The translations under genes were made by a program, and so were the position numbers. Positions 10,730 to 43,330 of a DNA stretch of 43,576 bases are shown here, in pieces. Below the pieces are notes generated by a model, which worked only from the letters and a program-made list of their open reading frames with translations, was not told the origin of the DNA and did no database searches. Position 1 is the stretch's first letter. Each line of letters starts with the position of its first letter. The DNA comes from an uncultured delta proteobacterium (GTDB lineage: Bacteria > RBG-13-61-14 > DRUE01): assembly GCA_903930515.1 (NCBI GenBank), contig CAIYYW010000310.1, forward strand, positions 1 to 43,576, read 5' to 3'.

Positions 10730-12175
10730 TTATTTTTTTGGCTCCCTTGCTTTTCTGCTCAAATATGTGGTCCGGATATGAAGCATATTATACCGGACAA
10801 TTTCCCGCCATTTCAGACGGTGGACCCTACCGTAATCCACCGCGAAACTGAACAGAAATATTATATCAAACAACGGGTTTTTCGGCAACTTGACCAGCCA
10901 GGGAATCAATTTTTCCCAAAGCCCTGAATGGAACCCGAGCAGGAATAGTTTATGAAGGTTTTCCAGGCGATCCGTGTCCGGCTGGCGGAATGGGCTGAAA
11001 GCGAAGTAGCTCAAGTCCTTTCCACTCGGATGCCCCGGCTTTTTCAAGCGGCCCTCTTGTTCCATCTGCTCGGTCAGGCGGGCGCCGGGAAAGGGCTGGA
11101 ACAGAGACCCGACCGCGAACTCGTTTTTAAGCTTCCGGTTATAGCTCAAAGTCTTCAGGCCCTTCGCCAGCGTGTCCCCCGGATAGTTGAGCATATTGTA
11201 GCTCTGGAGCTGGATCCCGGCCTGATGCAAAACCTCAACTCCCCGCTCAATCTGAGCGTCACTCATTTTCCGGTTAAGAATTTTTTCCCGGTCAAAAGCG
11301 TCCGCGCTCTCCAGTCCGTAGAACAAAACATAGCAGCCGCCCTCTTTCAACAGGCGCGCTTTTTCCTCCGTGATCTGGTCAATCCGGCCGGTGCAGAAAA
11401 AGGGAATCCCGATTTCCCGGCGGTAGCGCGGCAGGAATTTTTCCAGCCATTCCTGGTCATAGCTGAACAGGTCGTCGTTGAATCCGATGGTGCGGCCTGG
11501 AGCTCGCGAGATCACCCCTTTGATCTCCTCCAGCAAATAATCCGCGGATTTGAATCGCAGATAGCAATCCCGGTTCGGGTAAATCTTCCGCAGACCCAGG
11601 TTCGCGCAATAGCTGCACGCGAACGGACAGCCCCGGCTGGCCATAAAAAATTTGATCGGGTAGTCCCGGAAATATGGGTACCGCGAAAAATATAGCTCCT
11701 TGTCCGGAACCGCCAAACGATCCAGGTTTTCAACCAACGGCCCCACCGGGTTTTCAAAAATCCTTACGCCCTGGCGCGCCCACAAATTTTCTATGCCCGT
11801 GTAATCCTCTTTCCGGCTCAAGGCCTCGGCCAGCCGAACCATCGCCTGTTCCCCTTCCCCGCGCAAAACCAGGTCCACCGATTGGTTGTGGATGATTTCC
11901 GGGAAAAAGGTCGGGTCAACCCCGCCGAAAATGGTCAGGGTCTGGAGCCTCCCCTTGACCGCCTTGGCCCAGGCCAGGGCCGGTTCACGCTCAACCGATA
12001 CGACCGGGAAGCCGACCAGGTCGGGCTGGAACTTTGCTATTTTCGCGAGCGGGCTTTTTTCAAAAAAAGGTATGATCAGCCGGGTCTGATGACCGGCCCG
12101 CTTAAGCTCTCCGGCCAAAGCCTCCAGGCCGTGAAGCTCGTATTCGTTAAGTTGGATGAAAACTATCTTTGACAT
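10730..12175 (-). CDS. radical SAM enzyme with N-terminal B12-binding-type domain, embedded in the rib operon
   Basis: 481-aa ORF. N-terminal Rossmann-like segment (IVFIQLNEYELHGLEALAGELKRAGH ... DLVGF). CxxxCxxC cluster motif ASRGCPFACSYCAN. Only 3 nt separate it from the ribBA start and 13 nt from the ribE stop. Confidence 0.85.
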   Translation of the reverse strand: MSKIVFIQLNEYELHGLEALAGELKRAGHQTRLIIPFFEKSPLAKIAKFQPDLVGFPVVSVEREPALAWAKAVKGRLQTLTIFGGVDPTFFPEIIHNQSVDLVLRGEGEQAMVRLAEALSRKEDYTGIENLWARQGVRIFENPVGPLVENLDRLAVPDKELYFSRYPYFRDYPIKFFMASRGCPFACSYCANLGLRKIYPNRDCYLRFKSADYLLEEIKGVISRAPGRTIGFNDDLFSYDQEWLEKFLPRYRREIGIPFFCTGRIDQITEEKARLLKEGGCYVLFYGLESADAFDREKILNRKMSDAQIERGVEVLHQAGIQLQSYNMLNYPGDTLAKGLKTLSYNRKLKNEFAVGSLFQPFPGARLTEQMEQEGRLKKPGHPSGKDLSYFAFSPFRQPDTDRLENLHKLFLLGFHSGLWEKLIPWLVKLPKNPLFDIIFLFSFAVDYGRVHRLKWREIVRYNMLHIRTTYLSRKAREPKK

Positions 12176-12188
12176 CTATTATAAAAGA

Positions 12189-12818
12189 TCAAAAGCCTTC
12201 TTCTTTCAAACGCTCCAGGCTTAAAGCCCCGCGGCCTTTGCCCAGGAACTTCTCCACATATTTCCCCAGCAGGTCCGCCTCCAGGTTGACCGGGTCCCCG
12301 ACTTTCTTCCCGCCCAGCGCAGTCCGCTTCAAGGTTTCCGGGATCAGCATCACCGAGAACACCCGGCCGGAAACCCGGTTGATGGTCAGGCTGATCCCGT
12401 CAATCGCGATCGCCCCTTTTTCCACCAGGTATCTCTTCAAATCCTCCGGAGCCTCCAGTTCCCATTCCTGGAACTCCCCGGCCCGGCTCAGCTTTTTTAT
12501 TTTGCCCACTCCGTCAATATGCCCGAGCACGAAATGCCCGCCCAGCCGGTCCGACAGTTTCAGCGCGCGCTCCAGGTTCACCCTCTCTCCGACCTTTCTG
12601 GACTGGAAAGTGGTCCGGGATAAACTCTCCTTGCTCAATCCCACCCAGAAAGAATTCCCGGATTTTGACGCCACCGTGAAGCAGGCGCCGTCCACCGCCA
12701 CCGAATCGCCCAAAGCCGTTTGGAAATCTTTTCCCGGCTCGACCAGGATTTTTTTCCCGCTCGAGAGCGGCTGGATCCGGGAGATGGTTCCGACTCGTTC
12801 AATCAATCCCGTGAACAT
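12189..12818 (-). CDS. ribE: riboflavin synthase (alpha chain)
   Basis: 209-aa ORF starting MFTGLIERVGTI, with the duplicated lumazine-binding repeats (GDSVAVDGACFTV / GAIAIDGISLTI). Confidence 0.95.
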   Translation of the reverse strand: MFTGLIERVGTISRIQPLSSGKKILVEPGKDFQTALGDSVAVDGACFTVASKSGNSFWVGLSKESLSRTTFQSRKVGERVNLERALKLSDRLGGHFVLGHIDGVGKIKKLSRAGEFQEWELEAPEDLKRYLVEKGAIAIDGISLTINRVSGRVFSVMLIPETLKRTALGGKKVGDPVNLEADLLGKYVEKFLGKGRGALSLERLKEEGF

Positions 12819-15686: not shown

Positions 15687-15762
15687 GGGCGATTAGCTCA
15701 GTGGATAGAGCACCGGCCTCCGGAGTCGGTTGTCGCGGGTTCAAATCCCACATCGCCCTCCA
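15687..15762 (+). tRNA. tRNA-Arg (anticodon CCG), CCA encoded
   Basis: 76 nt. 7-bp acceptor GGGCGAT/ATCGCCC, D-arm GCTC AGTGGAT AGAGC, anticodon stem CCGGC/GTCGG with loop CTCCGGA (CCG), T-loop TTCAAAT (one C-A mismatch in the T-stem), discriminator T, then CCA. Confidence 0.9.
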
Positions 15763-15834: not shown

Positions 15835-17316
15835 CTATTCCGGCCGGAGGAGCGGGAAGGGGATGACTTCTCGGATGCTGGGGGAATCGGTCAGGAACAT
15901 TGTAAGGCGGTCAATCCCGATACCTTCTCCGGCGCAGGGGGGCATTCCGATTTCCAGGGCCTGGATGAAGTCTTCGTCAATGGGATGGGCTTCCTCGTCG
16001 CCTTTGGCTTTGGCCCGGGCCTGCTCTTCAAAGCGTTTCCTTTGATCAGCCGGGTCGTTGAGTTCGCTGAAGGCATTGGCGACTTCTTTCCCGGCGATGA
16101 TCAATTCAAACCGGTCGGTGACTTCGGGGTCTTGTTCATTGCGCCGGCTGAGCGGAGAGACTTCCACCGGGAACTGGGTGATGAAGGTGGGGTTGAGGAT
16201 TTCGTGCTCCACGGCTTGTTCAAAAACCGCGGTCAGGGCTTTTCCCCAGCCGTCGCCTTCCAGGAGTTTGAGGCCTTTTTGCTTGAGCCAGTTTTTGGTG
16301 GCCAGTCCTTGCCGGATTTCTTCTTTGCTCAGGCCGAGCTTTTTGGCGACCGCGTCTTCCATTGTGATCCGGGCAAAGGGGGGCGTGAAGTCCAGCTCTT
16401 TTTCCTGAAAGGAGATTTTGAGTTGGCCTCGGATTTGTTGAAGCAGGCTGACCAGCATTTCCTCGCTCAGCTTGATCAGGTCTTCATAATCCGCGTATGC
16501 CAGGTAGAACTCCAGCATGGTGTATTCCGGGTTATGCCAGGTGCTGATGCCCTCGTTTCTAAAGCAGCGTCCGATTTCATAGACGCGCTCAAAGCCTCCC
16601 ACCACCAGCCGTTTGAGATGAAGCTCGGTGGCGATGCGGAGGTATAAATCAATGTCCAGGGCGTTGTGGTGAGTGACAAAGGGCCTGGCCAGGGCGCCCC
16701 CGGGGATGGATTGCAGGATCGGGGTTTCCATTTCAATGAAGCCGCGGTCTTCCAAAAATTTCCGGATCTGGCTGATAATCGCGGCGCGGGTTTGGAAAAT
16801 TTCCCGGACCTTCGGAGTCGCGACCAAATCCACATAGCGCTGCCGGTATCGGGCTTCCACATCCTTGAGCCCATGCCATTTTTCCGGGAGCGGCCGGATG
16901 GATTTGGTGACCAGGATCAGGTCTTTGGAGTAAATGGTGAGCTCGTTGGTCCTGGTGCGGAAGGCCTTTCCGGAAACGCCGATGAAGTCGCCGACATCCA
17001 GTTGCTTGAGCAGCCATTGCTTTTCCTCGCTCAGGTCGGTTCGATTGAGGTAGATTTGGATTTCGCCGGTGCGGTCTCGGAGCCCGAGAAAATTGACCTT
17101 GCCCATAAAGTTTAGCCGGACAATCCTTCCGGCCACCGAGAACTCTTCTTCAATCTTCTCAATTTCTTCCTTGCCCAATGAATCCAGCCTGGCCCTGATT
17201 TCGCCGATCTGGTTCTTCGGCTTGAACCGGTTGAAATAGGGATTGACGCCGCGCTCGCGGATTTTTTCTATCTTCTGGTAGCGCTGGGAGATTATTTCCG
17301 GCTTATCCTCGTTCAC
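15835..17316 (-). CDS. lysS: lysine--tRNA ligase (class II)
   Basis: 493-aa ORF. N-terminal OB-fold region and class II catalytic core (FIEMETPILQ, CFRNEG, GIGIDRL). Confidence 0.96.
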   Translation of the reverse strand: MNEDKPEIISQRYQKIEKIRERGVNPYFNRFKPKNQIGEIRARLDSLGKEEIEKIEEEFSVAGRIVRLNFMGKVNFLGLRDRTGEIQIYLNRTDLSEEKQWLLKQLDVGDFIGVSGKAFRTRTNELTIYSKDLILVTKSIRPLPEKWHGLKDVEARYRQRYVDLVATPKVREIFQTRAAIISQIRKFLEDRGFIEMETPILQSIPGGALARPFVTHHNALDIDLYLRIATELHLKRLVVGGFERVYEIGRCFRNEGISTWHNPEYTMLEFYLAYADYEDLIKLSEEMLVSLLQQIRGQLKISFQEKELDFTPPFARITMEDAVAKKLGLSKEEIRQGLATKNWLKQKGLKLLEGDGWGKALTAVFEQAVEHEILNPTFITQFPVEVSPLSRRNEQDPEVTDRFELIIAGKEVANAFSELNDPADQRKRFEEQARAKAKGDEEAHPIDEDFIQALEIGMPPCAGEGIGIDRLTMFLTDSPSIREVIPFPLLRPE

Positions 17317-18426
17317 TTCCTCTCACTCGCCTCCTTCTTGAGATACGCAAACACGAACGGCTCCAACTTTCCATCCAGCACGGCCTGGACATTCCCGGAC
17401 TCGTAACCGGTCCGGTTGTCCTTGATCAACTGGTAAGGCTGGAGCACATAGGATCGGATCTGGGACCCCCACTCGATGTCCTTTTTATCGGCGTGAAATT
17501 CTTTCTCAAATTTTTCCTTGCGCTCGCTCTGCTCTTTTTCATAGAGCCGCGCCTTTAAAATTCTCATGGCGGTGGCCTTGTTCTGGTGCTGGCTTCTCTC
17601 GTTCTGGCACTGGACCACGATATTGGTGGGCAGGTGGGTGATGCGCACCGCGGAATCCGTGGTGTTCACGCCCTGCCCGCCCTTTCCCTGGCTGCGATAA
17701 ACATCTATGCGCAGGTCTTTGTCCTCCACTTTGAGATCAACCTCCTCCTCAATGTCCGGCATGGCATAGACCGCGGCGAAGCTGGTGTGGCGCCGCTTGT
17801 TGGCGTCATAGGGGCTGATCCGGACTAATCGGTGCACGCCGGTTTCGGACCGGAGCCAGCCGAAGGCATATTTCCCCGTGACCATCAGGATCGCGTTTTT
17901 GATTCCGGCTTCCTCGCCGGCCTGGAGGTCAACCACCTGGCCGTCGAACCCCATCTGCTGACAATACCTGAGATACATCCGGAGCAGGATGCTGGCCCAG
18001 TCCATGGCCTCGGTCCCGCCGGCGCCGGAGTTGATGGAAAGGAATGCGTCCTTGGCGTCGTTCTGACCGGTGAACAGTTGCTCGGTCTGCCAGCGTTCGA
18101 TTTCCTTTTCAGTTTGCTCCAGGGTTTGCTTGATCTCCGGTTCCAGGCTGTTGTTTTTATCTTCTCCGGCCAGCTCAATCAGCACCTGCAGGTCCTCCAC
18201 ATCTTTCCCCATCTTTTCAAAACTCTGAAGGCGGTCCTTGACCTGGGCGAATTCCTTATTGACTTTTTTGGCCTGATCGGCGTTCTGCCAGAGGTTGGTA
18301 TCCTTCAGTTTTTCTTCCAGCTCCGAGACGCGTTTCCTCCAACCGTCCAGGTCAAAGAAACCCCCGCATTTCCTTGATTTGACCCGACAGCTTCACGGCG
18401 CGTTCCTGATATTCTTCCAACATCAT
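17313..18426 (-). CDS. prfB: peptide chain release factor 2, requires programmed +1 frameshift
   Basis: Frame 0 runs 18426..18355 (24 codons, [24 protein letters not shown]) and ends at an in-frame TGA (18354-18352). After skipping T18354, the reading continues from GAC at 18353 in frame with the 299-aa track ORF (17313..18212). GGQ motif present (GKGGQGVN). About 370 aa in total. Confidence 0.93.
18351..18366 (-). promoter_or_regulatory. RF2 autoregulatory +1 frameshift site
   Basis: Minus strand reads CGG GGG TTT CTT TGA C: an SD-like GGGGG three nt upstream of the slippery CTT, then TGA-C, matching the canonical bacterial prfB site. Confidence 0.9.
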
Positions 18427-28681: not shown

Positions 28682-30079
28682 ATGGAAGTTAGAGTAAGGT
28701 TTGCGCCCAGCCCGACCGGTCATTTGCATATCGGGTCGGCCCGGACCGCGGTTTTCAACTGGCTGTATGCGCGTCACACCGGGGGGAAGTTCCTGCTCCG
28801 GATCGAGGACACCGACCCGGAGCGGAGTAAGCAGGAATACACGGAGGCGATCCTGGATGGGCTGAAATGGCTGGGCCTGGATTGGGACGAGGCGTTGGTA
28901 TATCAGAGCCGGCGGCTGGCTGTTTACAAGGAGACCGCGGAGAAGATGGTTTCCGAGGGCAAGGCCTATTATTGCGGTTGCACGGCCGCGGAGCTGGACG
29001 ATATGCGGGAAAAGGCCCTGAAAACCGGGGGCAAGCCCAGGTATGACGGCAGGTGCCGGAACCGCAAAGATCATCCCGCGGACCGGCCCAGGGTGATCCG
29101 GTTCCAGAGCCAAAGCGCGGGCGCCACCGTGGTTGAAGACCTGATCCAGGGCCGGGTCAGCTTTGATAATGCCGAGCTGGACGACCTGATCATTCTCCGC
29201 TCGGATGGCACGCCCACCTATAATTTCAGCGCGGTGATTGACGACCACGCGATGAAGATCACCCACATCATCAGAGGGAACGACCACCTCAATAACACCC
29301 CGCGCCAGATCCAGATCTATCAGGCGCTCGGTTATGATCTGCCGGCGTTCGCGCATCATCCATTGATCCTGGGCGAGGACCGGAGCAAGCTGAGCAAGCG
29401 CCACGGCGCCACCGGCCTGACCCAGTATCGGGAGGAAGGGTATCTGCCGGAGGCGATGGTCAATTTCCTGGTCCGGATCGGCTGGAGCCACGGCGACCAG
29501 GAGGTTTTCAAGACCAAGGAGATGATTGAATATTTCGACCTCAAAGACCTGACCCCGTCTCCAGGGGTATGGAACCAGGAGAAGCTGGTTTGGATCAACG
29601 GCGACTACATCCGCAACACCCCGATTGATCGGCTTGCGGACCTGGCCTTGCCCTTCTTTCAGAAGAAGGGATATCCCGCGCAGAAGGACGATTATTTGCT
29701 GGCCATCATCAAGGACTATCAGGTGCGGGCGAAGACGATTGCGGATTTCGCGGAAATGGCTGGTTTCTATTATGTTGAGGAGGTTCAGTATGACCCGGAG
29801 GCCAAGTCCAAATTCCTCGGTCCGGACCAGCTCAAAATCCTGGAGATTTTAAGAGACAGGCTGGGCGGGCTTAACCAATTTGAAAAGACCGCTCTGGAAG
29901 GTATCTTCCAGCAAGTGATCGCCGAGACCGGGCTCAAGATGAAACACATCGCACAGCCGCTCCGGGTGGCTATTGCCGGGGTGACGGTTACCGCGGGGAT
30001 CACCGAGGTGATGACCGTGCTCGGACCGCAAAGGACGCTCAGCCGGCTGAACCGGGCGATCAGGAGCATCAATCTTTGA
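28682..30079 (+). CDS. gltX: glutamate--tRNA ligase
   Basis: 465-aa ORF. RFAPSPTGHLHIGSART (HIGH) and KLSKRHG (KMSKS). Confidence 0.96.
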   Translation: MEVRVRFAPSPTGHLHIGSARTAVFNWLYARHTGGKFLLRIEDTDPERSKQEYTEAILDGLKWLGLDWDEALVYQSRRLAVYKETAEKMVSEGKAYYCGCTAAELDDMREKALKTGGKPRYDGRCRNRKDHPADRPRVIRFQSQSAGATVVEDLIQGRVSFDNAELDDLIILRSDGTPTYNFSAVIDDHAMKITHIIRGNDHLNNTPRQIQIYQALGYDLPAFAHHPLILGEDRSKLSKRHGATGLTQYREEGYLPEAMVNFLVRIGWSHGDQEVFKTKEMIEYFDLKDLTPSPGVWNQEKLVWINGDYIRNTPIDRLADLALPFFQKKGYPAQKDDYLLAIIKDYQVRAKTIADFAEMAGFYYVEEVQYDPEAKSKFLGPDQLKILEILRDRLGGLNQFEKTALEGIFQQVIAETGLKMKHIAQPLRVAIAGVTVTAGITEVMTVLGPQRTLSRLNRAIRSINL

Positions 30080-30189
30080 CTTTTAATTCCCTTTAGGCAT
30101 AAAATTATTATTGAACATGAAATTAGAACTCAAGCCATATTATCGCGATGTTTACGATCAAGAATTGATTTCAGATCTGAAGAGACAGG

Positions 30190-30381
30190 TTGCGCTTTCG
30201 CGTACTGCGGCGGGACAATTTCAAATGCACAAGCTGCGACAGATCCCCAGCCATTACTCCCGGGGTTCAGCTTCATGTTGACCATATAAAACCTTGGGCA
30301 AATGGCGGGGAGACGGTCCTGGAGAATTTGCAAACCCTGTGCTCGAAATGCAATATTGGAAAAAGCGATCTAGAATATTAG
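30190..30381 (+). CDS. HNH endonuclease (McrA-like), TTG start or frame-disrupted
   Basis: RFRVLRRDNFKCTSCDRS...LHVDHIKPWANGGETVLENLQTLCSKCNIGKSD is a textbook HNH core. There is no ATG in frame, and TGA sits at 30178-30180. An ATG ORF (30117) in the -1 frame encodes MKLELKPYYRDVYDQELISDLKRQ and runs into it. Confidence 0.65.
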   Translation: MRFRVLRRDNFKCTSCDRSPAITPGVQLHVDHIKPWANGGETVLENLQTLCSKCNIGKSDLEY

Positions 30382-30400
30382 GAGAAATCAGGAGGCTTCA

Positions 30401-30622
30401 ATGTCCAAGAAATTCACCGCGGTGATTACGAAGGAAGAAGATTGGTATGTGTCGCATTGCGTGGAGCTGGGCGTGGTCAGCCAGGGCAAGACCATTGAAC
30501 AAGCCCAGGCGAACCTGAAGGAAGCGGTTGAGCTTTACCTGGAAAGTTTTGGGAGCGACGATCTTCCGGAAAGCACCGGGGAGGTGGTTTTGTATCCGCT
30601 CGTGGTCGCGGTGAATGACTAA
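30401..30622 (+). CDS. hicB: HicB-like antitoxin (UPF0150 fold, no DNA-binding extension)
   Basis: 73-aa ORF. FTAVITKEEDWYVSHCVELGVVSQGKTIEQAQANLKEAVELYLESF is typical of HicB N-domain proteins. SD GGAGG lies upstream. Confidence 0.8.
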   Translation: MSKKFTAVITKEEDWYVSHCVELGVVSQGKTIEQAQANLKEAVELYLESFGSDDLPESTGEVVLYPLVVAVND

Positions 30623-30839
30623 GCTCCCGGTCTTGTCCGGAGAAAAGCTGATCAAACTTCTTAAGAAAGCGGGATTTGAGGTTGTCCGTCAAAAAGGCGG
30701 TCATATCAGCTTGAGAAAAGGGGAAGCCAAGACCGTGGTTCCGCTCCACAACGACCTGGCCAAAGGAACTCTTCTAGGCATTCTCAAACAGTGCGGATTA
30801 AGCAAAGAAGACTTGCAAAGATTGATTGAAGAAGGATAA
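30615..30839 (+). CDS. hicA: HicA-like mRNA interferase toxin (YcfA family)
   Basis: 74-aa [33 protein letters not shown]...[23 protein letters not shown]. 8-nt overlap with hicB. Confidence 0.8.
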
Positions 30840-30912
30840 TTTCGTAATCCGCGCATGCGAAAACGAATCGCGCCTGAAGGCGCTCGCGCATTTGGAGCAG
30901 AGGAGAAGAAAG

Positions 30913-32604
30913 ATGACTAATGAGCGAAAGGCTCCGCTGGATTTCATCCGGACGATCATCGCGGAAGACCTGAAGAGCAACAAGTATCAAGGCCGGGTGG
31001 TGACGCGGTTCCCGCCCGAGCCGAACGGGTATCTTCACATCGGTCATGCCAAGAGCATCTGCCTCAATTTCGGGGTCGCGAAGGAAAACCAGGGCGGGGT
31101 CTGCCATCTCCGTTTTGACGACACCAACCCGATCAAGGAGGAGGAGGAATTTTTTGAGTCAATTAAGGAGGATGTTCATTGGCTGGGATTTGACTGGGGC
31201 AAGAACCTTTTTCACGCCTCTGATTATTTTGAGCAACTGTATCAGTGGGCAATCCAATTGATCAATTCCGGCAAGGCCTATGTCTGCGATTTAAGCGCGG
31301 ACCAGATGCGGGAATACCGCGGCACCCCGACCCAGCCGGGCAGAAACAGCCCGTATCGGGACCGGTCGGTGGAGGAGAACCTGGACCTGTTTCAGCGGAT
31401 GCGGGCCGGGGAATTTGAGGAAGGCTCGCGGGTGCTCCGGGCCAAGATTGATATGGCCGCTCCCAACATCAACCTGCGCGATCCGGCGATGTATCGCATC
31501 CTGAAAGTCGCCCACCAGCGCACCGGGGATCAGTGGCGCATCTATCCGACTTATGACTGGGCGCACGGCCAGTCGGACTCGATTGAAAAAATCACCCAGA
31601 GCATCTGCACCTTGGAGTTTGAAATCCATCGGCCGCTCTATGACTGGTTCATTGAACAGATCGGCATCTATCATCCGCGGCAGATTGAATTTGCCCGTCT
31701 CAACCTGACCTATACCGTGCTCAGCAAGCGGATGCTGAAGCAGTTGGTGGAAAGCAAATTGGTCTCGGGTTGGGACGATCCCCGGATGCCCACCATCTCG
31801 GGACTCCGGAAACGCGGCTATACCCCGGAGGCGATCCGGGACTTCTGCGACCGGATCGGAGTGGCCAAGGCCGATTCCCGGGTGGACATCGCCCTGCTCG
31901 AGCACTGTTTGCGGGAAGACCTGAACAAAAGGGCTAATCGGGTGATGGCGGTATTGAGGCCGCTCAAGGTGGTGATTGAGAACTATCCCGAGGGGCAGGC
32001 GGAAGATTTGGAAGCGGTGAATAATCCCGAGGACCCGGCGAGCGGAACCCGCAAGGTTTCTTTCTCGCGCGTGATCTATATCGAGCGGGAGGATTTTATG
32101 GAAAACCCTCCCAAGGGATTTTTTCGGCTGGCTCCGGGAAGGGAAGTGAGATTGAGATACGGCTATTACATCACTTGCAAGGATGTGGTCAAGGATCCCA
32201 AGACCGGAGAAATCACCGAGCTTCATTGCGTCTATGACCCGGAGACCCGGGGCGGAGGCTCCCCGGACGGGCGCAAGGTCAAGGCCACCCTCCATTGGGT
32301 CTCCGCGGAACATTCCCTCCCGGCTGAAGTGAGACTCTATGGTCATCTTTTCACCAAGCCCAACCCGGACGAGATTGAGGAAGGCAAGGATTGGAAGGAC
32401 AGCCTTAATCCCGAATCATTGGAAACCCTGACCGGATGCCGGGTGGAGCCGAGCCTGAAAAACGCCCAACCCGGAGACCGGTTCCAGTTTGAACGCTTGG
32501 GATACTTCTGCGTCGACAAGGATTCCAAGGCCGGCGCGCCGGTGTTCAACCGCGCGGTCTCGCTCCGCGACGAATGGTCCCGAATCCAGAAGTCGCGGAA
32601 ATAG
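30913..32604 (+). CDS. glnS: glutamine--tRNA ligase
   Basis: The track ORF starts at 30826. ATG 30913 has AGGAG 7 nt upstream and yields [36 protein letters not shown] (HIGH) and TVLSKR (KMSKS). Confidence 0.95.
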
Positions 32605-35450: not shown

Positions 35451-37208
35451 TCAGAGCTTGGAAGCCTGGGTTGCGATCCGGTCGGTTTTTTGGGAAATGG
35501 CCTCGAGCTGAGCCAGGATCAGTTCCTTGGCGGCCATAGCCGCTTTTGAGATCAAGACCAATTCTTTTTTATCCTGGTTGCGGAGTTTGAATTCCACCGA
35601 ATCCTTGGCCAGGGTTTTATCTCCGACCAAAATCCGGAGCGGGATCCCGATCAAATCCGCATCCTTGAATTTCACCCCCGGGCTTTCCTCCCGGTCGTCC
35701 AAAAGCACTTCCAATCCCAGCTTTTCCAGCTCCGCGGCCAGATCGTCCGTGACCTTTCTCAATCGTTCGTCCTTATAATTGATAGGCAACAGATAGATCT
35801 GGAACGGGGCGATGCTTAAGGGCCAGATGATCCCGCTCGGGTCGTGGTTCTGCTCAATGGAGGCGGCCACGGTCCGGCTGGTGCCGATCCCGTAACAGCC
35901 CATTATGAAGAATTGTTCCTTGCCGTTCTGGTCCAGGAAGGTCGCGTTCATCGGTTTGGAATATTTCAGCCCGAGCTTGAAGATGTGTCCGACTTCAATG
36001 CCTTTATGGAAATGATACTCGGACCCGCAGCGGTTGCAAAAATCTCCCGGGACCACGACTCGGAGGTCGGCGATTTTGGCGGCCTGGAAATCGCGGGTTA
36101 AGTTGGTATTGAGCAAATGATAGTCCGGCTCGTTCGCGCCGGTGATGAAATTTTTCAAGAGCGCCACTTCCTGGTCCAGATAGATCGGGATTTTCAGCCC
36201 GACCGGTCCGGAGAAGCCGAGCGGGCCTTTGGTCAATTCCTGGATCCGTTCGGGAGTGGCCATTTCCAGCCGGTCGGCGTTGATCAGTCCCTGGAGCTTG
36301 TTGGGGTTGAGTTCGCGGTCTCCGCGCACCATCGCCGCGACCGGTCCTTTATCGCTCTCAAAGATCAGGGTCTTGACCAGGTTCGCCGGAGCCAGTTTCA
36401 AAAAGGCGCAGACTTCCTCTACCGTTCTCCGCCCGGGGGTATGAACTTTTTCCAAAACCTGTTCCGGGTCGGTCTCCGGTTTCGCCGCGGTTTTCACTTC
36501 CGCTTTTTCCAGGTTGGCCGCGTAACCGCATTTGGGACAGACCGCCAGCGTGTCCTCGCCGGTGTCGGCCAGGACCATAAACTCGTGGCTGAATTTACCT
36601 CCGATCGGGCCGGTCACGGCCTCCACCGCCCGGAACTCGAGACCGCACCTGGCAAAGATGCGCGAATACGCCGCATACATCCCCTGGTAACTCTTCTCCG
36701 CGCCGGGCTCGTCCGCGTCAAAGCTGTACGCATCCTTCATCCCGAACTCCCGGCCGCGCATCAGCCCGAACCGGGGCCGGATCTCGTCGCGGAACTTGTC
36801 CTGGATTTGGTAGAGGTTGACCGGAAGCTGACGCCAGCTCCGGAGCTGGCCCCGCACCAAATCCACGATCACTTCCTCGTGGGTCGGGCCCAGGCAGCTT
36901 TCGTGCTCGTGCCGGTCCTGGAACCGGAGCAATTCTTTCCCATACGCCTCCCAGCGGCCGGATTCTTTCCACAACTCGGACGGTTGAACCATCGGCAAAA
37001 AAACTTCCTGGGCGCCGGCCCGGTTCATCTCCTCCCGGATGATCTCCTCCACCTTGCGGAGCGCGCGCAACCCGAACGGGAGCCAGTTGTAAATGCCGGC
37101 CGCGAGCTTCTTGACCATTCCGGCCCGGAGCATCAGTTGGTGCGAGATCACCTCGGCTTCCGCCGGGCTTTCCCGGTAAGTGGGCAAATAATACCTGCTT
37201 AATTTCAT
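35451..37208 (-). CDS. proS: proline--tRNA ligase (bacterial type with INS editing domain)
   Basis: 585-aa ORF starting MKLSRYYLPTYRESPAEAEVISHQLMLRAGM, with class II motifs and a central insertion domain. Confidence 0.96.
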   Translation of the reverse strand: MKLSRYYLPTYRESPAEAEVISHQLMLRAGMVKKLAAGIYNWLPFGLRALRKVEEIIREEMNRAGAQEVFLPMVQPSELWKESGRWEAYGKELLRFQDRHEHESCLGPTHEEVIVDLVRGQLRSWRQLPVNLYQIQDKFRDEIRPRFGLMRGREFGMKDAYSFDADEPGAEKSYQGMYAAYSRIFARCGLEFRAVEAVTGPIGGKFSHEFMVLADTGEDTLAVCPKCGYAANLEKAEVKTAAKPETDPEQVLEKVHTPGRRTVEEVCAFLKLAPANLVKTLIFESDKGPVAAMVRGDRELNPNKLQGLINADRLEMATPERIQELTKGPLGFSGPVGLKIPIYLDQEVALLKNFITGANEPDYHLLNTNLTRDFQAAKIADLRVVVPGDFCNRCGSEYHFHKGIEVGHIFKLGLKYSKPMNATFLDQNGKEQFFIMGCYGIGTSRTVAASIEQNHDPSGIIWPLSIAPFQIYLLPINYKDERLRKVTDDLAAELEKLGLEVLLDDREESPGVKFKDADLIGIPLRILVGDKTLAKDSVEFKLRNQDKKELVLISKAAMAAKELILAQLEAISQKTDRIATQASKL

Positions 37209-37235: not shown

Positions 37236-37264
37236 ATTTTAAATAAAAGCGGACCGGCGGTCAA
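37236..37264 (-). promoter_or_regulatory. candidate sigma70 promoter of proS
   Basis: Minus strand reads TTGACC, 17-nt spacer, TAAAAT. The ~30-nt leader contains GGGAAAGG before the ATG. Confidence 0.4.
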
Positions 37265-37282: not shown

Positions 37283-37879
37283 TCAGCCCGGCAGTTTTTT
37301 TCGCATCAGCATCCGGTAACCGGAGAAGCCCTGTTTTTGCCAGAATTCAACCCCGGCCCGGTTCTCGCTCAGGACCTGGAGATAAACCAGCTCAATCTGA
37401 TTTTCCCCGAACCAGTTCAGCGCCTGCCGGACCAGTTCCGAGCCTGCGCCCGCCTTCCGGTTTTGCTCTTCCACGAACAGGTCCGCGATGTATCCCGTCC
37501 GCTGAGGCTTGAAAATGGACGGGGGTGCCAAAGGCGGCTCCAATCGGGCCAGGAGGGAACCGAGTATTTTCCGCGCCACCCGGCGAGGACCGAGCCGTTC
37601 AAGCAGGGTATTCCTGGAGGGGGATTGCAGCCGCTTGATCCCGGTTCCGGAATAAATGTTCAGCCGGATGAACCCGATGGCCGACTCGCCGCGCAGGGCG
37701 AGCAGGATTTTATTGTTGCCCGCGGAAAGGAAACCCCTGACCAGTTTTTCAAAATCGGCCTCGGGAAAAATTTCCGCGAGCCGGTCGTAAGCCATCTGGC
37801 CGCGCATCAGCAGCTCGAACAATCCGGACAGGGCCGGGAGGTCGTCCAGGGTTGCCGGCCGGATTTTGGTTTCGGGCAT
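37283..37879 (-). CDS. GNAT-family N-acetyl/acyltransferase
   Basis: 198-aa ORF starting IRPATLDDLPAL. Acetyl-CoA binding-type segment VEEQNRKAGAGSELV. C-terminal FWQKQGF. Confidence 0.85.
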   Translation of the reverse strand: MPETKIRPATLDDLPALSGLFELLMRGQMAYDRLAEIFPEADFEKLVRGFLSAGNNKILLALRGESAIGFIRLNIYSGTGIKRLQSPSRNTLLERLGPRRVARKILGSLLARLEPPLAPPSIFKPQRTGYIADLFVEEQNRKAGAGSELVRQALNWFGENQIELVYLQVLSENRAGVEFWQKQGFSGYRMLMRKKLPG

Positions 37880-37881
37880 TT

Positions 37882-39186
37882 TTATTTTCCGGAGGCTTTA
37901 GGTTTTTTTTCGATTTCCTTTTTGAGCGCGTTGATCCCGACCAGGGCCTGGCATCCGAGCAGGGCGTGCTCTAGGGTGGGCTCGGTCTTGACCGCGTAAC
38001 TCAGGATCCAGCCCATTTTTCTGAGATCCGCGGTTGACCCGTTGAAGAACAGGGTCTTGCCGTCACTGGCAATCAGCCTGGAAAATCCCTGGGCCGGTTG
38101 GGCGCCTTCCTGGAAGGTTTCGCAGGTGACATAATCCGGTTTTTTCAGGATACATTCAGTGTCATACTTGAAACTGTAATCAAAGATCGCCAGGTCCATG
38201 CCGATTTCCCAATGGTATTTCGGGCCTTTCGCGCCCATCCCCAGGGAATCCACCTTTTGCGCCCCGGGCATGAATTCCGGGTACTTGAGGTAGTCCGTGA
38301 TCACCGACCAGACCCGGTCGCGGGCCGCGGAAGTAATGGCGCCGGCCGTGACATAAACCGTGGGGCCGTCTTCCAGCACCAGGATTTTTCCGCGCTCCAG
38401 GAATTTCTGCATGCTGTCCGGGTCCTGCGACAGTATCTCAAAAACCGGCTTGCCCTTTTTGGGCGCGACCAGTTTTCCGCCCGATGCTTTGTATCTCTTT
38501 TCGGCCTCGAATTTGGTGGCGCGGGTGACCATTACCGCGGTGCTGACATTGGTCATCATTTCCACCAGCGGGGCGCGGGTAAAAATCATCTTCAAAAACT
38601 TGCTCCTCGGCTCGGAATAGACCGAGTAGAAAGCCATGGTCCGGCCGTCCTCGGTCGGGATCAATTCCCAGAAGCCCACATTGATATTGAACTCTCCCCA
38701 CGAGTGCGCCCAGTCGGTCCGGTAGGGAGGCCGATCGTAATGGTACACGCCGTAATCCATAGTGTATTTGATGAAGGCCATCTTGACATTGATGTGGAAG
38801 GTCACATCGTGAAGGTTTTCGCCGACCTTTTTGGACTCGGCGCCGCCGGTCATGGGCACGAACTGGTTGTAATGCTCAAAATCGGAAAGGGTGGCGAAGA
38901 CCACCTCGGCCGGAGCGTTGACCATAATCCCGGCCGCGCTCATCCAAGGGACCACCGGCGGTTTGTCATAAAAAACAATCACCTGCCCCCGGTCCAGAAG
39001 GTTTTCCAGCAATCCCTTGTTGGCGCCCTCGGGCAAAATATGCTGGTTGTAGGTGATCCTCATCATCCGTTTGATTTCATCTTCGTTCTTCGGGACCGGC
39101 ACCCGGCCTTCCTGCGCTTGCAGCCGAAGGCTGAGGAAAAAAACGCCCAAAATCAAAAACCATTTGTTTCTGAAAAGGCTGCTCAT
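37882..39186 (-). CDS. secreted protein with two tandem SRPBCC/START-like domains (paralog B)
   Basis: 434-aa ORF. Signal peptide MSSLFRNKWFLILGVFFLSLRLQAQE. Two repeats of the SRPBCC pattern (I-x-AP-x-x-V ... DF-x-x-Y-x-x-F-x-P ... GFWEL). About half its residues are identical by eye to the upstream paralog. Confidence 0.8.
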   Translation of the reverse strand: MSSLFRNKWFLILGVFFLSLRLQAQEGRVPVPKNEDEIKRMMRITYNQHILPEGANKGLLENLLDRGQVIVFYDKPPVVPWMSAAGIMVNAPAEVVFATLSDFEHYNQFVPMTGGAESKKVGENLHDVTFHINVKMAFIKYTMDYGVYHYDRPPYRTDWAHSWGEFNINVGFWELIPTEDGRTMAFYSVYSEPRSKFLKMIFTRAPLVEMMTNVSTAVMVTRATKFEAEKRYKASGGKLVAPKKGKPVFEILSQDPDSMQKFLERGKILVLEDGPTVYVTAGAITSAARDRVWSVITDYLKYPEFMPGAQKVDSLGMGAKGPKYHWEIGMDLAIFDYSFKYDTECILKKPDYVTCETFQEGAQPAQGFSRLIASDGKTLFFNGSTADLRKMGWILSYAVKTEPTLEHALLGCQALVGINALKKEIEKKPKASGK

Positions 39187-39217
39187 AATTTCTCCTGTTT
39201 TTTCCGGTTAGTATCGC

Positions 39218-40534
39218 TCACTTTTTCTCAATTTTATCCTTGATGGAATTTAACACCAAAACGCCTTGGCTGGCAAGGCTGGCGTATTCCAGGGTCGGCT
39301 CCACCGAAAGCGCGTATTTGGGGATGCGGCCGATTGAGCGGAGGTCCGTGGTGGTTCCGTTGAAGACGATGGTTTTATTCTCAAGCGGGATCAGCTTCCA
39401 GAACCCCGGCGCCGGGCCGCAACAGGGCCGGTCAATCTGCCAGCTTACCAGGCCGGGCGGCGAGAACCGGTATTGCCATTGCGGGCTTTGCGAGAACTTG
39501 AACCCGGCCAAATCAAATTCCAGGTCCCACCGATAGGTCTCCCCGTTTTTTCCCGCGCCCAAATATTTCACACCTTTCACCCCCGGCATAAACTGCGGGT
39601 AATTTTTAAAATCCGTGATTTTACGAAAGGCGTCCTGGATTCCGGAATTGAGCAGGGTCCCGGCCACCAGGTAAACCGTGGGACCGGGAACCAGGAGCAA
39701 GAGCTTGCCGCGCTCCAAAAAAAGCGCCAGCGTTTTTGGGTCGCTGGTGAGAACTTTTTCCATCCCCGGCCAGTCCAGGGGTTTCGCCGGAACCGGCTTC
39801 AATCCCTGTCGCTTCTCGGCCTCCGCTTTCATCGCCTGCACGATCATCGTGGCCGTGCTGACATTGGTCATCATCTCCAGCGTGGGCTCGCGGGAATAGA
39901 TCATTTTCAAAAACCGGCTGCTCGGTTCGGAATAAATGGAATAAAAGGCCATCGTGCTTTTCTGGTCCGCGCTCGGGATCAGCTCCCAGAAGCCCACGCA
40001 CCGGTCAAACTCCCCCCAGGCCAAAGTCCAGTCCAGCCGATGCGGCGGCTGGCGATATGAATACAACCCGTAATCCATCCGGTAGTTAATGAACGCCAGC
40101 TTGACCTTGAGATGCAAGTCCTCCTGATAGACATTCTCAAATAATTTGTGGTCGTCAATCCCATCGGTCATCGGCACATATTCCGGATAGCGGGGATGGT
40201 CCATAATCACTTGATAAACCTTTTCCATCGGAGCCCGGATCAAAATCCCGGCCACACTCATCCAGGGAATTTCCTTCGGATGATCGTAAAACATAATCAC
40301 CTGGCCCATCAGAAGCATCTTCTCCAGCAAAACCGGGTCCGCGCCTTCCGGAAGCGCGCGCTCGGACAGGGTCACCCGCATCATCTTCTCCGCTTCCGCA
40401 AGATTCCCGGGCCGCGGGATTTGATTGAGGGAGATGGCGATTCCCGGGCCGAGCAATCCGATCAGCCCGGAAAATAAAATAAAGATGAAGGCTCTGACTC
40501 TACTCCAGTCCCATATCTTTAATCGCTTTGACAA
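39218..40534 (-). CDS. secreted/anchored protein with two tandem SRPBCC/START-like domains (paralog A)
   Basis: 438-aa ORF with a hydrophobic N-terminus. Shares long identical blocks with paralog B (PWMS.AGI, MDYG.Y.Y, VGFWELIPS, TMAFYS.YSEP, FLKMI, LEMMTNVSTA). Its start overlaps the PIG-L gene end by 35 nt. Confidence 0.8.
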   Translation of the reverse strand: MSKRLKIWDWSRVRAFIFILFSGLIGLLGPGIAISLNQIPRPGNLAEAEKMMRVTLSERALPEGADPVLLEKMLLMGQVIMFYDHPKEIPWMSVAGILIRAPMEKVYQVIMDHPRYPEYVPMTDGIDDHKLFENVYQEDLHLKVKLAFINYRMDYGLYSYRQPPHRLDWTLAWGEFDRCVGFWELIPSADQKSTMAFYSIYSEPSSRFLKMIYSREPTLEMMTNVSTATMIVQAMKAEAEKRQGLKPVPAKPLDWPGMEKVLTSDPKTLALFLERGKLLLLVPGPTVYLVAGTLLNSGIQDAFRKITDFKNYPQFMPGVKGVKYLGAGKNGETYRWDLEFDLAGFKFSQSPQWQYRFSPPGLVSWQIDRPCCGPAPGFWKLIPLENKTIVFNGTTTDLRSIGRIPKYALSVEPTLEYASLASQGVLVLNSIKDKIEKK

Positions 40535-41357
40535 TTTCTCCGCCGGCCAGCTCGTATCTAAAGGCCTCCGCGAATTGGTATCCGGCCTTCTTGCCGATCT
40601 CTCCGCAATACATTTTCACCATCAGGTCAATCACTCCCCGGTAATTGTTCCGGTCCAGGCTGGCGGTGGTTTTGGGGGCCACCTTATTGGCCTGGAGGGC
40701 CAGCTTCATTTCGTCAATGGTCAGCTTCATCTGGCTGTCGTGGGCGCAGAGCGCCTCAATTTTTTGGTCAATGAAATTGCTGATGTCAATAATGGTGTCG
40801 GCGTGGACATTGGCCTTGGCGAAATAATATACCTCCGCAACCAGGTGCGGCTTCAATCCCTTTTTGAAATGCTCGGGATAAAATTTCGGGTTCTGGGAAA
40901 AGCCGATTGCCTCAACTGCGGCCTGAGCCACCATCTGATGGTCCGGGTGCGGCTCGAACGGGGCCCAGGGATCAAAGGTGAAAACGATCCGGGGCTTGTA
41001 GGTCCGGATCAGCTTGATAAATTTCTCCCGCAGATGGTTGAGCCGGTAGTCGCGGAGCATCCCGTCCGGGTATCGCAAAAAAATCACATCCTTCTTGCCC
41101 AGAATTTTCCCCGCCGCCAAAGCCTCGGCCTCGCTGTCCTTGATCAGTTGTTTGGCGGGAAGGTCAAAGCTGCCCCGCTGATTATCCGTGGCGATCACCT
41201 CAAAAATCTCCCAGCCCTCGCCGGCGAATTTGGCCACCGTGCCCCCGGCCAGAAATTCGGTGTCGTCCGCATGCGCGACCAGGAGCAGAATTACTTTATC
41301 AGTGGCCGGCATATATTTTTTCGGCTCGGCTTTTTTCCGGCTTTTTCTTCCCGCCAT
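40500..41357 (-). CDS. PIG-L/LmbE-family de-N-acetylase
   Basis: 285-aa ORF. VILLLVAHADDTEFLAGG matches the AHPDDE-type zinc motif, and HPDHQMV is present downstream. AGAAGGGA SD-like sequence lies before the ATG at 41357. Confidence 0.85.
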   Translation of the reverse strand: MAGRKSRKKAEPKKYMPATDKVILLLVAHADDTEFLAGGTVAKFAGEGWEIFEVIATDNQRGSFDLPAKQLIKDSEAEALAAGKILGKKDVIFLRYPDGMLRDYRLNHLREKFIKLIRTYKPRIVFTFDPWAPFEPHPDHQMVAQAAVEAIGFSQNPKFYPEHFKKGLKPHLVAEVYYFAKANVHADTIIDISNFIDQKIEALCAHDSQMKLTIDEMKLALQANKVAPKTTASLDRNNYRGVIDLMVKMYCGEIGKKAGYQFAEAFRYELAGGEIVKAIKDMGLE

Positions 41358-41418
41358 TTTTCCCTTCTTCTTCGTGGCGCGTCCCGCGTATTCCGCGGGA
41401 TTGTCTGCGTCCGCAGTT

Positions 41419-42231
41419 TTAGGACATCAAGGTTTTTTCCGCCAGGAATTTCGCCGCCATCGGGGCTTCCAGCTTCGGGTTTTTGCCTTCGTATTCAATG
41501 GACAGGTATCCGTCATACCGGGCCTGGTCCAGGATTTTGAAAATCTTGTCCCAGTCCTGCTTCTTGTCCCTGCCGGTCTCGTCAACTTGGTAAAATTTCG
41601 CGTGCACCATCATCGTGTAAATCATCGCCTTTTCCAGGGCCGCGTATCCGTTCACCTCCGCGGTGTCCACCAGGTAGTCGCCGGTGTCCAGGCAGATCCG
41701 GAGCCAGTCCGAGCCGACCTCGTCAAGGATCCGGAACAGGTCGTCCACGGTTTTGGTGAAGCCCAGATGGTTATGGTTCTCCAGCACCAGCATCACGCCG
41801 GCGTCTTCCGCCTTTTTGGACAGGCGCTGCAAACACTGGATCATCTCCGGCCAGAGCCGCTGCTTCTCCGCTTCATATTTGGCCGGATCGTGTTGTCCGG
41901 GCCAGCCCGCCAATACCCGGAGCATCTTCGCCCCGAACCAGTTCGCGATCGGGATCCATTTCTCCACCAGCTTCTCGCTCTCCATCCGCGCCCCCGGGTC
42001 CGCTTTTCCGAAATCGCTGCTTACCGAGCAGATCGGGATTTCCAGGCCCAGGTCCGCGATCAATTTTTTCAAGCTGGTGACATATTCCCGGTTCAGGCTG
42101 GGGAAATGAATATCCAATAACTCCACACCGTCCAGCCCCAGCTCCTTGCAATGCTTCACCCAGCTCAACTGATCCATCTCCTTGGACTGGAACAGCGGAT
42201 GATACGACCAGCTACTCATGCCAATTTTCAT
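41419..42231 (-). CDS. sugar phosphate isomerase/epimerase (xylose isomerase-like TIM barrel)
   Basis: 270-aa ORF. MKIGMSSWSY..., LGLDGVELL, VLENHNH and DTGD are typical of the AP_endonuc_2/IolE-like TIM barrel. Confidence 0.85.
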   Translation of the reverse strand: MKIGMSSWSYHPLFQSKEMDQLSWVKHCKELGLDGVELLDIHFPSLNREYVTSLKKLIADLGLEIPICSVSSDFGKADPGARMESEKLVEKWIPIANWFGAKMLRVLAGWPGQHDPAKYEAEKQRLWPEMIQCLQRLSKKAEDAGVMLVLENHNHLGFTKTVDDLFRILDEVGSDWLRICLDTGDYLVDTAEVNGYAALEKAMIYTMMVHAKFYQVDETGRDKKQDWDKIFKILDQARYDGYLSIEYEGKNPKLEAPMAAKFLAEKTLMS

Positions 42232-42331: not shown

Positions 42332-43330
42332 TTATCTGGTCGGCTGCCAGACAAAAGTTCCGGTCTTGTCAATATATCCGAGCTTGTCCTTGAACTCCAC
42401 CCGGGCCAGGCCCAGAATGAATTTATCCGCGGCGTCAAACTTGGGCTCAACCGCCAGCTTGCCGCTCTTATTGAGGTAGCACCATTTCTCAAGCATCTTC
42501 GCCGGGGCGAGTCCGTCGGAAAAATATCCGGCATCGTCATACTCCGGGTTGATCGCGAATTTGCCGTTCTTCCCGAGGTATCCCCATTTCTGGCCGATTC
42601 TTACCGCGGCCAAGCCGTCGGAAAAATCGCGTGCCTGGTCAAACTGGGGGTTGATGATGATCTTGCCGAAGTTGTTGATGTATCCGAACTTGGTCCCGAT
42701 CCTGACGCCGGCCAATCCCTCGGAAAAATCAGAGGCTTCTTCAAACTGGGGGTTGATGGTAATCTTCCCGAACCGGTCAACATATCCCCATTTCTCCCCG
42801 ATCAGCGCCTTGGCCAATCCGTCGTAAAAATCGCCGCATTCCGCGAACTGCGGGTTGATCGCGATCTTTCCGAAAGTGTCCACATATCCCCATTTATCTC
42901 CGACCTTCACCCTGGCCCGGCCTCCGGAAAAATTACCGGCTTCCTCAAATTGCGGGTTAATCGCGAACACGCCGTTCTTGTCAATGAATCCGAATTTGTT
43001 TCCCAGCTCCTCGGCGTTCACCAGCGCCAGCCCCTCGGAAAAATCAGCCGCGTCGTAAAACTGCGGGTTGATCGCGAGCTTGCCGGTCCGGTTCACATAC
43101 GCCCATTTGCCCTCCACCGCGCCTCCGACCTTGACCCGGGCCAGCCCCTGCGAGAACCCGTAGGCCTCGTCAAACTGAGCCTTGATCGCCATCTCCCCGC
43201 TCTTCTTGATGTATCCCCATTTGCCGAATTGCCGGACCGGATAGAGACCGATCAAATCCTGAGGGCGCGCCGAATAAACCGCGAAACCCAGCAGAATCAC
43301 CCCGGCAAAACCGGCCATAATCTTCTTCAT
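42332..43330 (-). CDS. WG-repeat (KWG) protein, secreted
   Basis: 332-aa ORF with a signal peptide, then about nine ~37-aa repeats of the pattern KWGY(I/V)(D/N)xxGKxAINPQF(D/E)xAxDFSEGLAxV. AGGAGG SD lies 8 nt upstream. Confidence 0.88.
   Translation of the reverse strand: MKKIMAGFAGVILLGFAVYSARPQDLIGLYPVRQFGKWGYIKKSGEMAIKAQFDEAYGFSQGLARVKVGGAVEGKWAYVNRTGKLAINPQFYDAADFSEGLALVNAEELGNKFGFIDKNGVFAINPQFEEAGNFSGGRARVKVGDKWGYVDTFGKIAINPQFAECGDFYDGLAKALIGEKWGYVDRFGKITINPQFEEASDFSEGLAGVRIGTKFGYINNFGKIIINPQFDQARDFSDGLAAVRIGQKWGYLGKNGKFAINPEYDDAGYFSDGLAPAKMLEKWCYLNKSGKLAVEPKFDAADKFILGLARVEFKDKLGYIDKTGTFVWQPTR

Follow-up and report, generated by a model that had tools for sequence, protein, structure and literature searches.

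A conserved, unnamed operon joining a PIG-L deacetylase to exported tandem-SRPBCC proteins, probably concerned with a hydrophobic amino-sugar compound of the cell envelope

Why should genes for predicted cytoplasmic sugar enzymes be packed against genes for exported proteins with START-like binding pockets? The question is raised by a 43,576-nucleotide stretch of DNA (the window) from an uncultured delta proteobacterium (contig CAIYYW010000310.1, assembly GCA_903930515.1). Here a xylose-isomerase-like TIM barrel, a PIG-L/LmbE-family deacetylase, two paralogs with two SRPBCC/START domains each (START paralogs 1 and 2, or ST1 and ST2) and a GNAT acyltransferase are encoded one after another. A preliminary description saw in them an undescribed system in which a secreted carrier pair is sandwiched between a deacetylase and an acyltransferase. 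The genes turn out to form a real, conserved operon without a name, and its probable task is to handle, within the envelope, a hydrophobic compound bearing an amino sugar. Its established part comprises gene identities, folds, export signals, an intact deacetylase motif and the tight linkage.

The conserved core and its variable surroundings

About 50 related loci (numbered with the prefix L) from metagenomes and metagenome-assembled genomes (MAGs) were collected via protein look-ups and pattern scans and mapped with tblastn. The order TIM barrel, PIG-L, START is shared by at least 12 distinct loci whose flanks differ. In most related loci PIG-L is immediately preceded by a TIM ortholog (60-81% identity), and the gaps between PIG-L and START range from -8 to +121 nt, most being 28 nt or less. 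These three genes are thus a conserved, tightly spaced core. Since many independent contigs, differing in their flanks, have this arrangement, it is not a matter of chance, which argues against the random adjacency that the preliminary description had named as the outcome that would speak against it.

Around the core the gene content varies. The fullest cluster, in L022, reads WG-repeat gene, TIM, PIG-L, ST1, ST2, B12 radical-SAM gene and two phosphodiesterase genes (PD1 and PD2), and L025/26 have the same order without the WG gene. The second START gene is absent from several related loci, and a variant with a single START gene followed by the radical-SAM gene is found in L006, L007 and L028-31. 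The minimal unit (L009/L019, L033) consists of PIG-L and START, separated by 3 nt and bordered by unrelated genes on the opposite strand. A GNAT gene follows START only in the window, L002/L024, L005, L020 and L049, i.e., in about five distinct loci, and these GNATs are 31-55% identical. In at least eight loci its position is filled by the B12 radical-SAM gene, and the two never occur together in any locus mapped. Of the five genes of the preliminary description, TIM, PIG-L and START are the ones whose synteny is conserved, and GNAT is an accessory gene that varies between loci. The proposed sandwich does not survive as a general arrangement, most other loci having the radical-SAM gene instead and some keeping PIG-L and START only. 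Deacetylation followed by N-acylation thus describes a single variant and not the logic of the core.

A feature absent from the earlier account is that the cluster in relatives usually continues into PD1 and PD2. Both are proteins of 675-700 residues from the Phosphodiest family (alkaline-phosphatase superfamily). PD1 carries a signal peptide and one membrane anchor and PD2 a twin-arginine translocation (TAT) signal, so that both are expected outside the cytoplasm. The pair adjoins the cluster in at least eight loci and is 72-84% conserved among them. Neither gene is present in the window or in its close relative L003, where the corresponding position holds a membrane-bound EptA/LtaS-like sulfatase-family gene on the opposite strand. 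Proteins of this EptA/LtaS-like type, with 5-7 transmembrane segments, are encoded at L003 9375-11507 and, beside a PIG-L ortholog, at L014 7001-9975; their mutual identity is 33-34%.

In a neighbour-joining tree, 34 distinct START sequences fall into three clades, those of ST2, of ST1 and a third, and adjacency to PIG-L is present in all of them. The ST2 clade lies inside the cluster in every sampled locus, just upstream of the GNAT or radical-SAM gene or, in L003, of the opposite-strand sulfatase-family gene instead, while members of the ST1 clade usually come directly after PIG-L. The third clade includes at least six distinct loci where a type IV pilin gene comes after START. The pilin gene (L001 9675-10121; also L010, L011, L013, L040, L041 and L050) occurs where PIG-L is not adjacent; its product has PilA of the Myxococcus type as best NCBIfam match and is 45-66% conserved across loci.

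Folds, export and relatives of the encoded proteins

ST1 and ST2 are 46% identical across 407 residues. Both belong to the SRPBCC superfamily, with 55.0 and 53.4 bits for PF03364 (Polyketide_cyc, cut-off 23.4, E 1e-14 for each), matched in two stretches per paralog, and 34.7 and 42.7 bits for PF10604 (cut-off 27.4). AlphaFold2 models made from family alignments are of high confidence for ST1 (predicted local distance difference test (pLDDT) 90.1, predicted template-modelling score (pTM) 0.86) and for ST2 (pLDDT 89.0, pTM 0.87). In each half of either model, six to eight strands precede the long terminal helix of a helix-grip SRPBCC domain (residues ~68-234 and ~266-425 in ST2). Each model is built of two copies of a unit comprising two short helices, a strand and such a domain. 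The best Foldseek matches of both paralogs are the di-domain aromatase/cyclases (ARO/CYC) StfQ and BexL (E ~1e-13), followed by many single-domain SRPBCC/START structures with target-normalised template-modelling (TM) scores of 0.6-0.8; more than 240 SRPBCC-type matches in the PDB reach E <= 1e-3. Models, Foldseek and Pfam agree on the two START-like domains per protein that had been proposed, and structure prediction, the check suggested for them, finds both in each paralog. Homology between the N- and C-terminal halves of ST2 (BLASTP E 5e-13, hhalign probability 99.8%) points to an internal duplication as the origin of this architecture. Conservation is higher in the N-domain, with 39 columns of at least 90% identity vs 23 in the C-domain, and the pocket strands of the N-domain carry the invariant polar residues Y145, Y148, R156, D158 and W159, together with E209 and E229.

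Export was judged by a heuristic that looks for a K/R n-region and then an uncharged run of 11-22 residues, a pattern present in nearly all full-length members of the START family. In the models the N-terminal helix is of low confidence and is taken as the signal peptide; it is hydrophobic over residues 10-27 in the ST1 model, and a Kyte-Doolittle scan places a hydrophobic segment at residues 16-34. The first 25 residues are poorly conserved (28% column identity vs 60-66% in the mature protein), and no conserved lipobox cysteine was found in the N-termini of the family. The signal peptides claimed for both paralogs are thus borne out by their N-terminal features, and ST1 and ST2 are predicted to be soluble proteins exported via Sec. 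The same Kyte-Doolittle scan finds no hydrophobic N-terminus in TIM, PIG-L or GNAT; TIM and PIG-L are predicted to be cytoplasmic enzymes.

Membership of the deacetylase in the PIG-L family is clear (PF02585, 99 bits vs a cut-off of 28.2), and its HxDD (AHADD) and HPDH zinc/catalytic motifs are intact when aligned with 3wl4. That structure, an archaeal diacetylchitobiose deacetylase, is its closest solved relative (E 4e-29), followed by BcZBP, LnmX and BshB. PIG-L stays below all NCBIfam equivalog cut-offs, with 98.7 bits vs 182.5 for BshB1, 64.6 vs 195.25 for BshB2, 50.2 vs 277 for Mca and 44 vs 224 for MshB. Its ortholog group, which bears no functional name, takes in at least 169 clusters (50-91% identity), and some of these are labelled as Deltaproteobacteria or Polyangia. 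No other gene of the cluster is as well conserved: identity among orthologs is 74-91% in relatives that carry the cluster and 50-63% where they do not adjoin START. The TIM barrel covers positions 2-247 of the 249 of PF01261 (123.5 bits vs 31.1) and is a clear family member that resembles generic sugar epimerases/isomerases only. It reaches no NCBIfam equivalog, the best being D-psicose 3-epimerase (51 bits vs 300), and its best solved relative, 4ovx, is an uncharacterised protein. GNAT is a single generic domain of 198 residues in which the acyl-CoA motif R-K-A-G-A-G is visible; it scores 14.1 bits against MshD (cut-off 163) and does not have the tandem GNAT architecture of that enzyme.

How far do the START paralogs extend beyond these loci? 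In an exhaustive profile search over 1.84 billion representatives, 969 matches were obtained at E <= 1e-3, of which 231 reach E <= 1e-10 and 41 reach E <= 1e-30. The family comprises double-domain (~410-475 residues) and single-domain (~190-240 residues) forms, and the wider-family examples inspected start with signal peptides. Protein, profile and cluster look-ups found no functional name on any member; a few are labelled "SRPBCC family protein" at NCBI and come from Myxococcota or Deltaproteobacteria MAGs. Among the loci of distant members that were inspected there is no consistent neighbour. One member precedes a DUF3108 gene, another an HSP90 gene, and in a Deltaproteobacteria MAG (L052 6001-8528) there is a 4-nt overlap between a distant di-SRPBCC gene and the gene for an outer-membrane channel of the FadL/Toluene_X type.

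Several known systems resemble parts of the cluster. StfQ (4xrt) and BexL (4xrw), like the paralogs, join two SRPBCC helix-grip domains of unequal conservation in one chain. ARO/CYC proteins are, however, cytoplasmic, about 300 residues long and encoded within polyketide synthase (PKS) clusters, whereas the paralogs are exported, about 435 residues long and have an extra helix-helix-strand element before each domain. The whole-chain TM-score to StfQ is 0.27, which implies that the domains are packed differently and that only the domain fold is common. Assignment to the type II PKS ARO/CYC proteins was rejected, the likeness being one of fold in exported proteins and no PKS genes being found in the window or related loci. 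STARD4, the Xanthomonas START protein 3qsz, TTHA0849 and RatA/Coq10 share with the paralogs the helix-grip fold with its internal cavity, and it is plausible that the paralogs bind a hydrophobic ligand. These START/StAR-related proteins and bacterial SRPBCC binders differ in being single-domain cytoplasmic proteins or domains of larger cytoplasmic ones. Identity with the RatA toxin, a family label used by JGI, was likewise dismissed: ST1 scores 21.8 bits against the NCBIfam model PRK10724 (cut-off 258) and is exported, and ST2 does not match this model.

The deacetylase shares Pfam domain, motifs and size with diacetylchitobiose deacetylase, BshB, MshB and N-acetylglucosamine (GlcNAc)-phosphatidylinositol deacetylase; unlike these, it belongs to a well-conserved ortholog group of its own. 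In the pathways MshB-MshC-MshD and LpxC-LpxD a GlcNAc deacetylase likewise stands beside an enzyme that could use the freed amine or sugar, the place that GNAT takes here and the B12 radical-SAM enzyme in relatives. HpnK and HpnJ follow the same logic of deacetylase and follow-up enzyme in making the hopanoid cyclitol ether. LpxC, LpxD and HpnK are unrelated in family to the enzymes of the cluster, and membership in BshB, MshB or MshD was rejected, all scores lying far under the cut-offs. The parallel with LpxC/LpxD and MshB/MshD drawn in the preliminary description accordingly stands as an analogy only, PIG-L being far below the BshB1 and MshB thresholds and GNAT reaching 14 bits vs 163. The radical-SAM protein of the relatives is neither HpnJ nor HpnR (56 bits vs 578 and 89 vs 650). 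A bacterial glycosylphosphatidylinositol-like pathway was discarded, as the GT22 match, at 25 bits, is weak, reflects the GT-C fold in general and is confined to L002, and so was a PigN-like reading of PD1 and PD2, which are exported soluble or single-anchor proteins and not multi-spanning PigN-type transferases. A role in anti-phage defence finds no PADLOC match for any of the cluster's six proteins.

The periplasmic task proposed below has counterparts in LolA, MlaC, LptA and BstB/BstC, whose folds are entirely different; BstB and BstC are sterol binders (PMC10942540). A literature search found no periplasmic carrier of the SRPBCC/START type. Literature and database names contain no description of the exported tandem-SRPBCC family or of its operon with PIG-L and TIM, in line with the earlier claim of an undescribed system.

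Layout in the window and genomic setting

The preliminary description had placed five co-directional genes at 37283-42231, and all five open reading frames (ORFs) are indeed found there on the minus strand, with the identities it gave (Table 1). Every Pfam assignment exceeds its gathering score. Co-directional ORFs run from the WG-repeat gene to proS. The close spacing of ST2 and GNAT that had been reported is seen directly in the sequence. The reported overlap of ST1 with PIG-L hinges on the TTG start, which is the sole start codon in frame that retains the ST1 signal peptide and has GGAG just upstream; with this start the overlap holds.

Table 1. Features of the cluster and its surroundings (positions refer to the window unless a locus is named)
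Feature	Position	Strand	Length or gap	Remarks
Exported WG-repeat protein	42332-43330	-	332 aa	WG_beta_rep, 8 repeats, E 1e-88
WG-TIM junction			gap 100 nt	read from sequence
Xylose-isomerase-like TIM barrel	41419-42231	-	270 aa	AP_endonuc_2, Pfam E 1.5e-35
TIM-PIG-L junction			gap 61 nt	read from sequence
PIG-L/LmbE-family zinc deacetylase	40500-41357	-	285 aa	Pfam PIG-L, E 3.8e-28
PIG-L-ST1 junction			gap -35 nt	with TTG start at 40534
START paralog 1 (ST1), exported di-SRPBCC	39218-40534	-	438 aa	Polyketide_cyc, two stretches
ST1-ST2 junction			gap 31 nt	read from sequence
START paralog 2 (ST2), exported di-SRPBCC	37882-39186	-	434 aa	Polyketide_cyc + Polyketide_cyc2
ST2-GNAT junction			gap 2 nt	read from sequence
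GNAT N-acyltransferase	37283-37879	-	198 aa	Acetyltransf_1, Pfam E 3.7e-13
GNAT-proS junction			gap 74 nt	read from sequence
Promoter-like site, GNAT-proS gap	37236-37264	-		TTGACC-17-TAAAAT, 10/12 matches
proS	35451-37208	-		downstream of GNAT
PD1/PD2 tandem pair (relatives)	L002 10363-14489; L005 3016-7139; also L006, L007, L022, L025			after the cluster

The strongest promoter-like site of the region, judged by consensus match only, falls into the gap between GNAT and proS; proS therefore probably has its own promoter, and the unit is likely to end at this site on its downstream side. Among the mapped relatives proS lies downstream of the cluster only in L003, as it does in the window. At the other end, the WG-repeat protein has an N-terminal hydrophobic segment in the Kyte-Doolittle scan, and homologs are encoded upstream of TIM, at varying distances, in L003, L022 and L051. 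The WG-repeat gene is a loosely associated neighbour of the cluster.

The window as a whole is ordinary chromosome, with a riboflavin operon, lysS, prfB, lnt, gltX, glnS, proS and a polysaccharide gene set. No sign of a mobile element was noticed in it, though no search was aimed at one. A B12-binding radical-SAM gene (10730-12175, minus strand) lies in the riboflavin operon, between riboflavin synthase (12189-12818) and ribBA (9473-10726), and is only ~25% identical to the radical-SAM genes associated with the cluster in relatives. In prfB, the gene for release factor 2 (17313-18425, minus strand), the classic programmed +1 frameshift site, CTT TGA C, is found at 18351-18357, ~70 nt after the ATG, and because of it the listed prfB ORF (299 residues) is without its N-terminus. 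The GC content dips to 0.494 at 30001-31000, vs ~0.56 elsewhere, in a gap of ~750 nt between gltX (28682-30079) and glnS (30826-32604), in which no ORF or tRNA was found. A lone tRNA-Arg (CCG) is located at 15687-15762 on the plus strand, between a dCMP deaminase-like gene and lysS.

What the cluster may do

The reading that we favour, tentatively and at somewhat less than an even chance, is that the operon is built of three kinds of parts that handle an amphipathic amino-sugar molecule, tailored in the cytoplasm and handled by the di-SRPBCC proteins in the periplasm. PIG-L and TIM would act on a head group of the N-acetyl-hexosamine type in the cytoplasm, and GNAT, whose slot is taken by the B12 radical-SAM protein in most relatives, would put a new acyl group on the freed amine. 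The di-SRPBCC proteins, one or two of them and exported via Sec, would take up the hydrophobic part in their pockets outside the cytoplasm and hold or move the same molecule in the periplasm; in many relatives PD1 and PD2 may also act on it. On this reading all the products would share one common molecule, amphipathic and bearing an amino sugar, and the START proteins would be binders or carriers and not enzymes. That GNAT and radical-SAM genes share a position and never co-occur fits alternative fates of the deacetylated amine. PD1 and PD2 beside the cluster point to an envelope link in relatives, and the distant di-SRPBCC gene overlapping a FadL/Toluene_X gene points to a hydrophobic cargo. 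Lnt, encoded in the window, points to a diderm envelope; the source lineage is probably Gram-negative.

A number of observations weigh against this proposal. The cluster contains no glycosyltransferase, flippase or transporter, which leaves the route of the product to the periplasm unexplained. About half of the START loci lack PIG-L, PIG-L orthologs are widespread without START, and in one MAG the two lie on separate contigs, PIG-L there adjoining an EptA-like gene. Among the closest solved relatives of PIG-L, diacetylchitobiose deacetylase and BshB use soluble sugars and not lipids. The coupling to FadL is a single case, the other distant relatives having unrelated neighbours, and the conserved polar residues of the N-domain could mark an active site instead of a carrier pocket.

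Other explanations draw on the same facts. Catabolism or scavenging is a rival to be taken seriously, although we hold such a role to be rather unlikely: the exported di-SRPBCC proteins would capture an external hydrophobic glycoconjugate, cleaved by PD1 and PD2 in relatives, PIG-L and TIM would degrade the imported amino sugar, and GNAT would detoxify or recycle the amine. The catabolic nature of the diacetylchitobiose deacetylases nearest to PIG-L, the sugar epimerases and isomerases that are the nearest named relatives of TIM, the hydrolase-type character of the extracytoplasmic PD1 and PD2, the FadL-type uptake channel gene and a GH20 hexosaminidase a few kb upstream in L003 would all suit such a pathway. 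However, none of the loci examined has an importer, kinase, deaminase or regulator in or beside the cluster, sugar catabolism would not usually employ a B12 radical-SAM enzyme in this slot, and the conservation of PIG-L (74-91%, with orthologs of 50-60% elsewhere) looks more like that of a housekeeping gene than of a niche function. It is also conceivable, if improbable, that the genes have merely inherited their adjacency, PIG-L and TIM doing one cytoplasmic job, for example making a low-molecular-weight thiol or some other amino-sugar metabolite, and START an unrelated one in the envelope. The wide occurrence of PIG-L without START, the START genes that, in about half of the loci, occur by themselves or beside a pilin gene, and the different compartments of the products agree with this, and all cluster-bearing contigs may stem from one poorly sampled lineage. 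What speaks against mere inheritance is that the linkage is kept where all flanks differ (L019 vs L002, L003 and L006) and in three deep START clades, down to START identities of ~45-49%, with very short or overlapping gaps that suggest translational coupling.

Still less probable, in our estimate, is that the di-SRPBCC proteins are periplasmic, cofactor-free enzymes, akin to cyclases, dehydratases or isomerases, with a small hydrophobic molecule as substrate. In fold they come closest to cyclases, both di-domain (StfQ, BexL) and mono-domain (ZhuI, TcmN), R156, D158, W159, Y145 and Y148 are invariant on the pocket strands of the N-domain, and the 39 vs 23 conserved columns resemble the asymmetry of ARO/CYC proteins, in which reportedly only one domain is catalytic according to work on StfQ and BexL. 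Yet sequence similarity to cyclases is marginal (E 0.03), and the absence of polyketide synthase genes from the window and related loci, the cytoplasmic location of ARO/CYC enzymes as opposed to the export of the paralogs, and the low whole-chain TM-score, with the domain fold alone in common, argue against an enzyme of this kind.

A more far-reaching form of the amphipathic-molecule proposal, which we regard as unlikely, is that the di-SRPBCC pair constitutes the first START-type periplasmic lipid-transfer system in bacteria and carries a lipid with glucosamine attached, such as an amino sugar linked to a hopanoid, a polyprenol or a phospholipid. PIG-L and TIM would make its head group, GNAT or the B12 radical-SAM enzyme would diversify it, and PD1 and PD2 would trim it in relatives. 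START-fold proteins are the classic lipid-transfer proteins of eukaryotes. The types of cargo known for periplasmic transport are few, among them lipoproteins (Lol), lipopolysaccharide (Lpt) and phospholipids (Mla).

All domains of the cluster come from known superfamilies; what seems new is the combination of exported tandem-SRPBCC proteins with a PIG-L/TIM operon. The START proteins are soluble, confidently modelled and could be expressed without the source organism, and their genetic tie to an amino-sugar deacetylase provides a concrete handle on the cargo. The family amounts to ~970 clusters at 50% identity in metagenomes, and if the lipid-transfer proposal is true, it would represent a new bacterial route for hydrophobic molecules.

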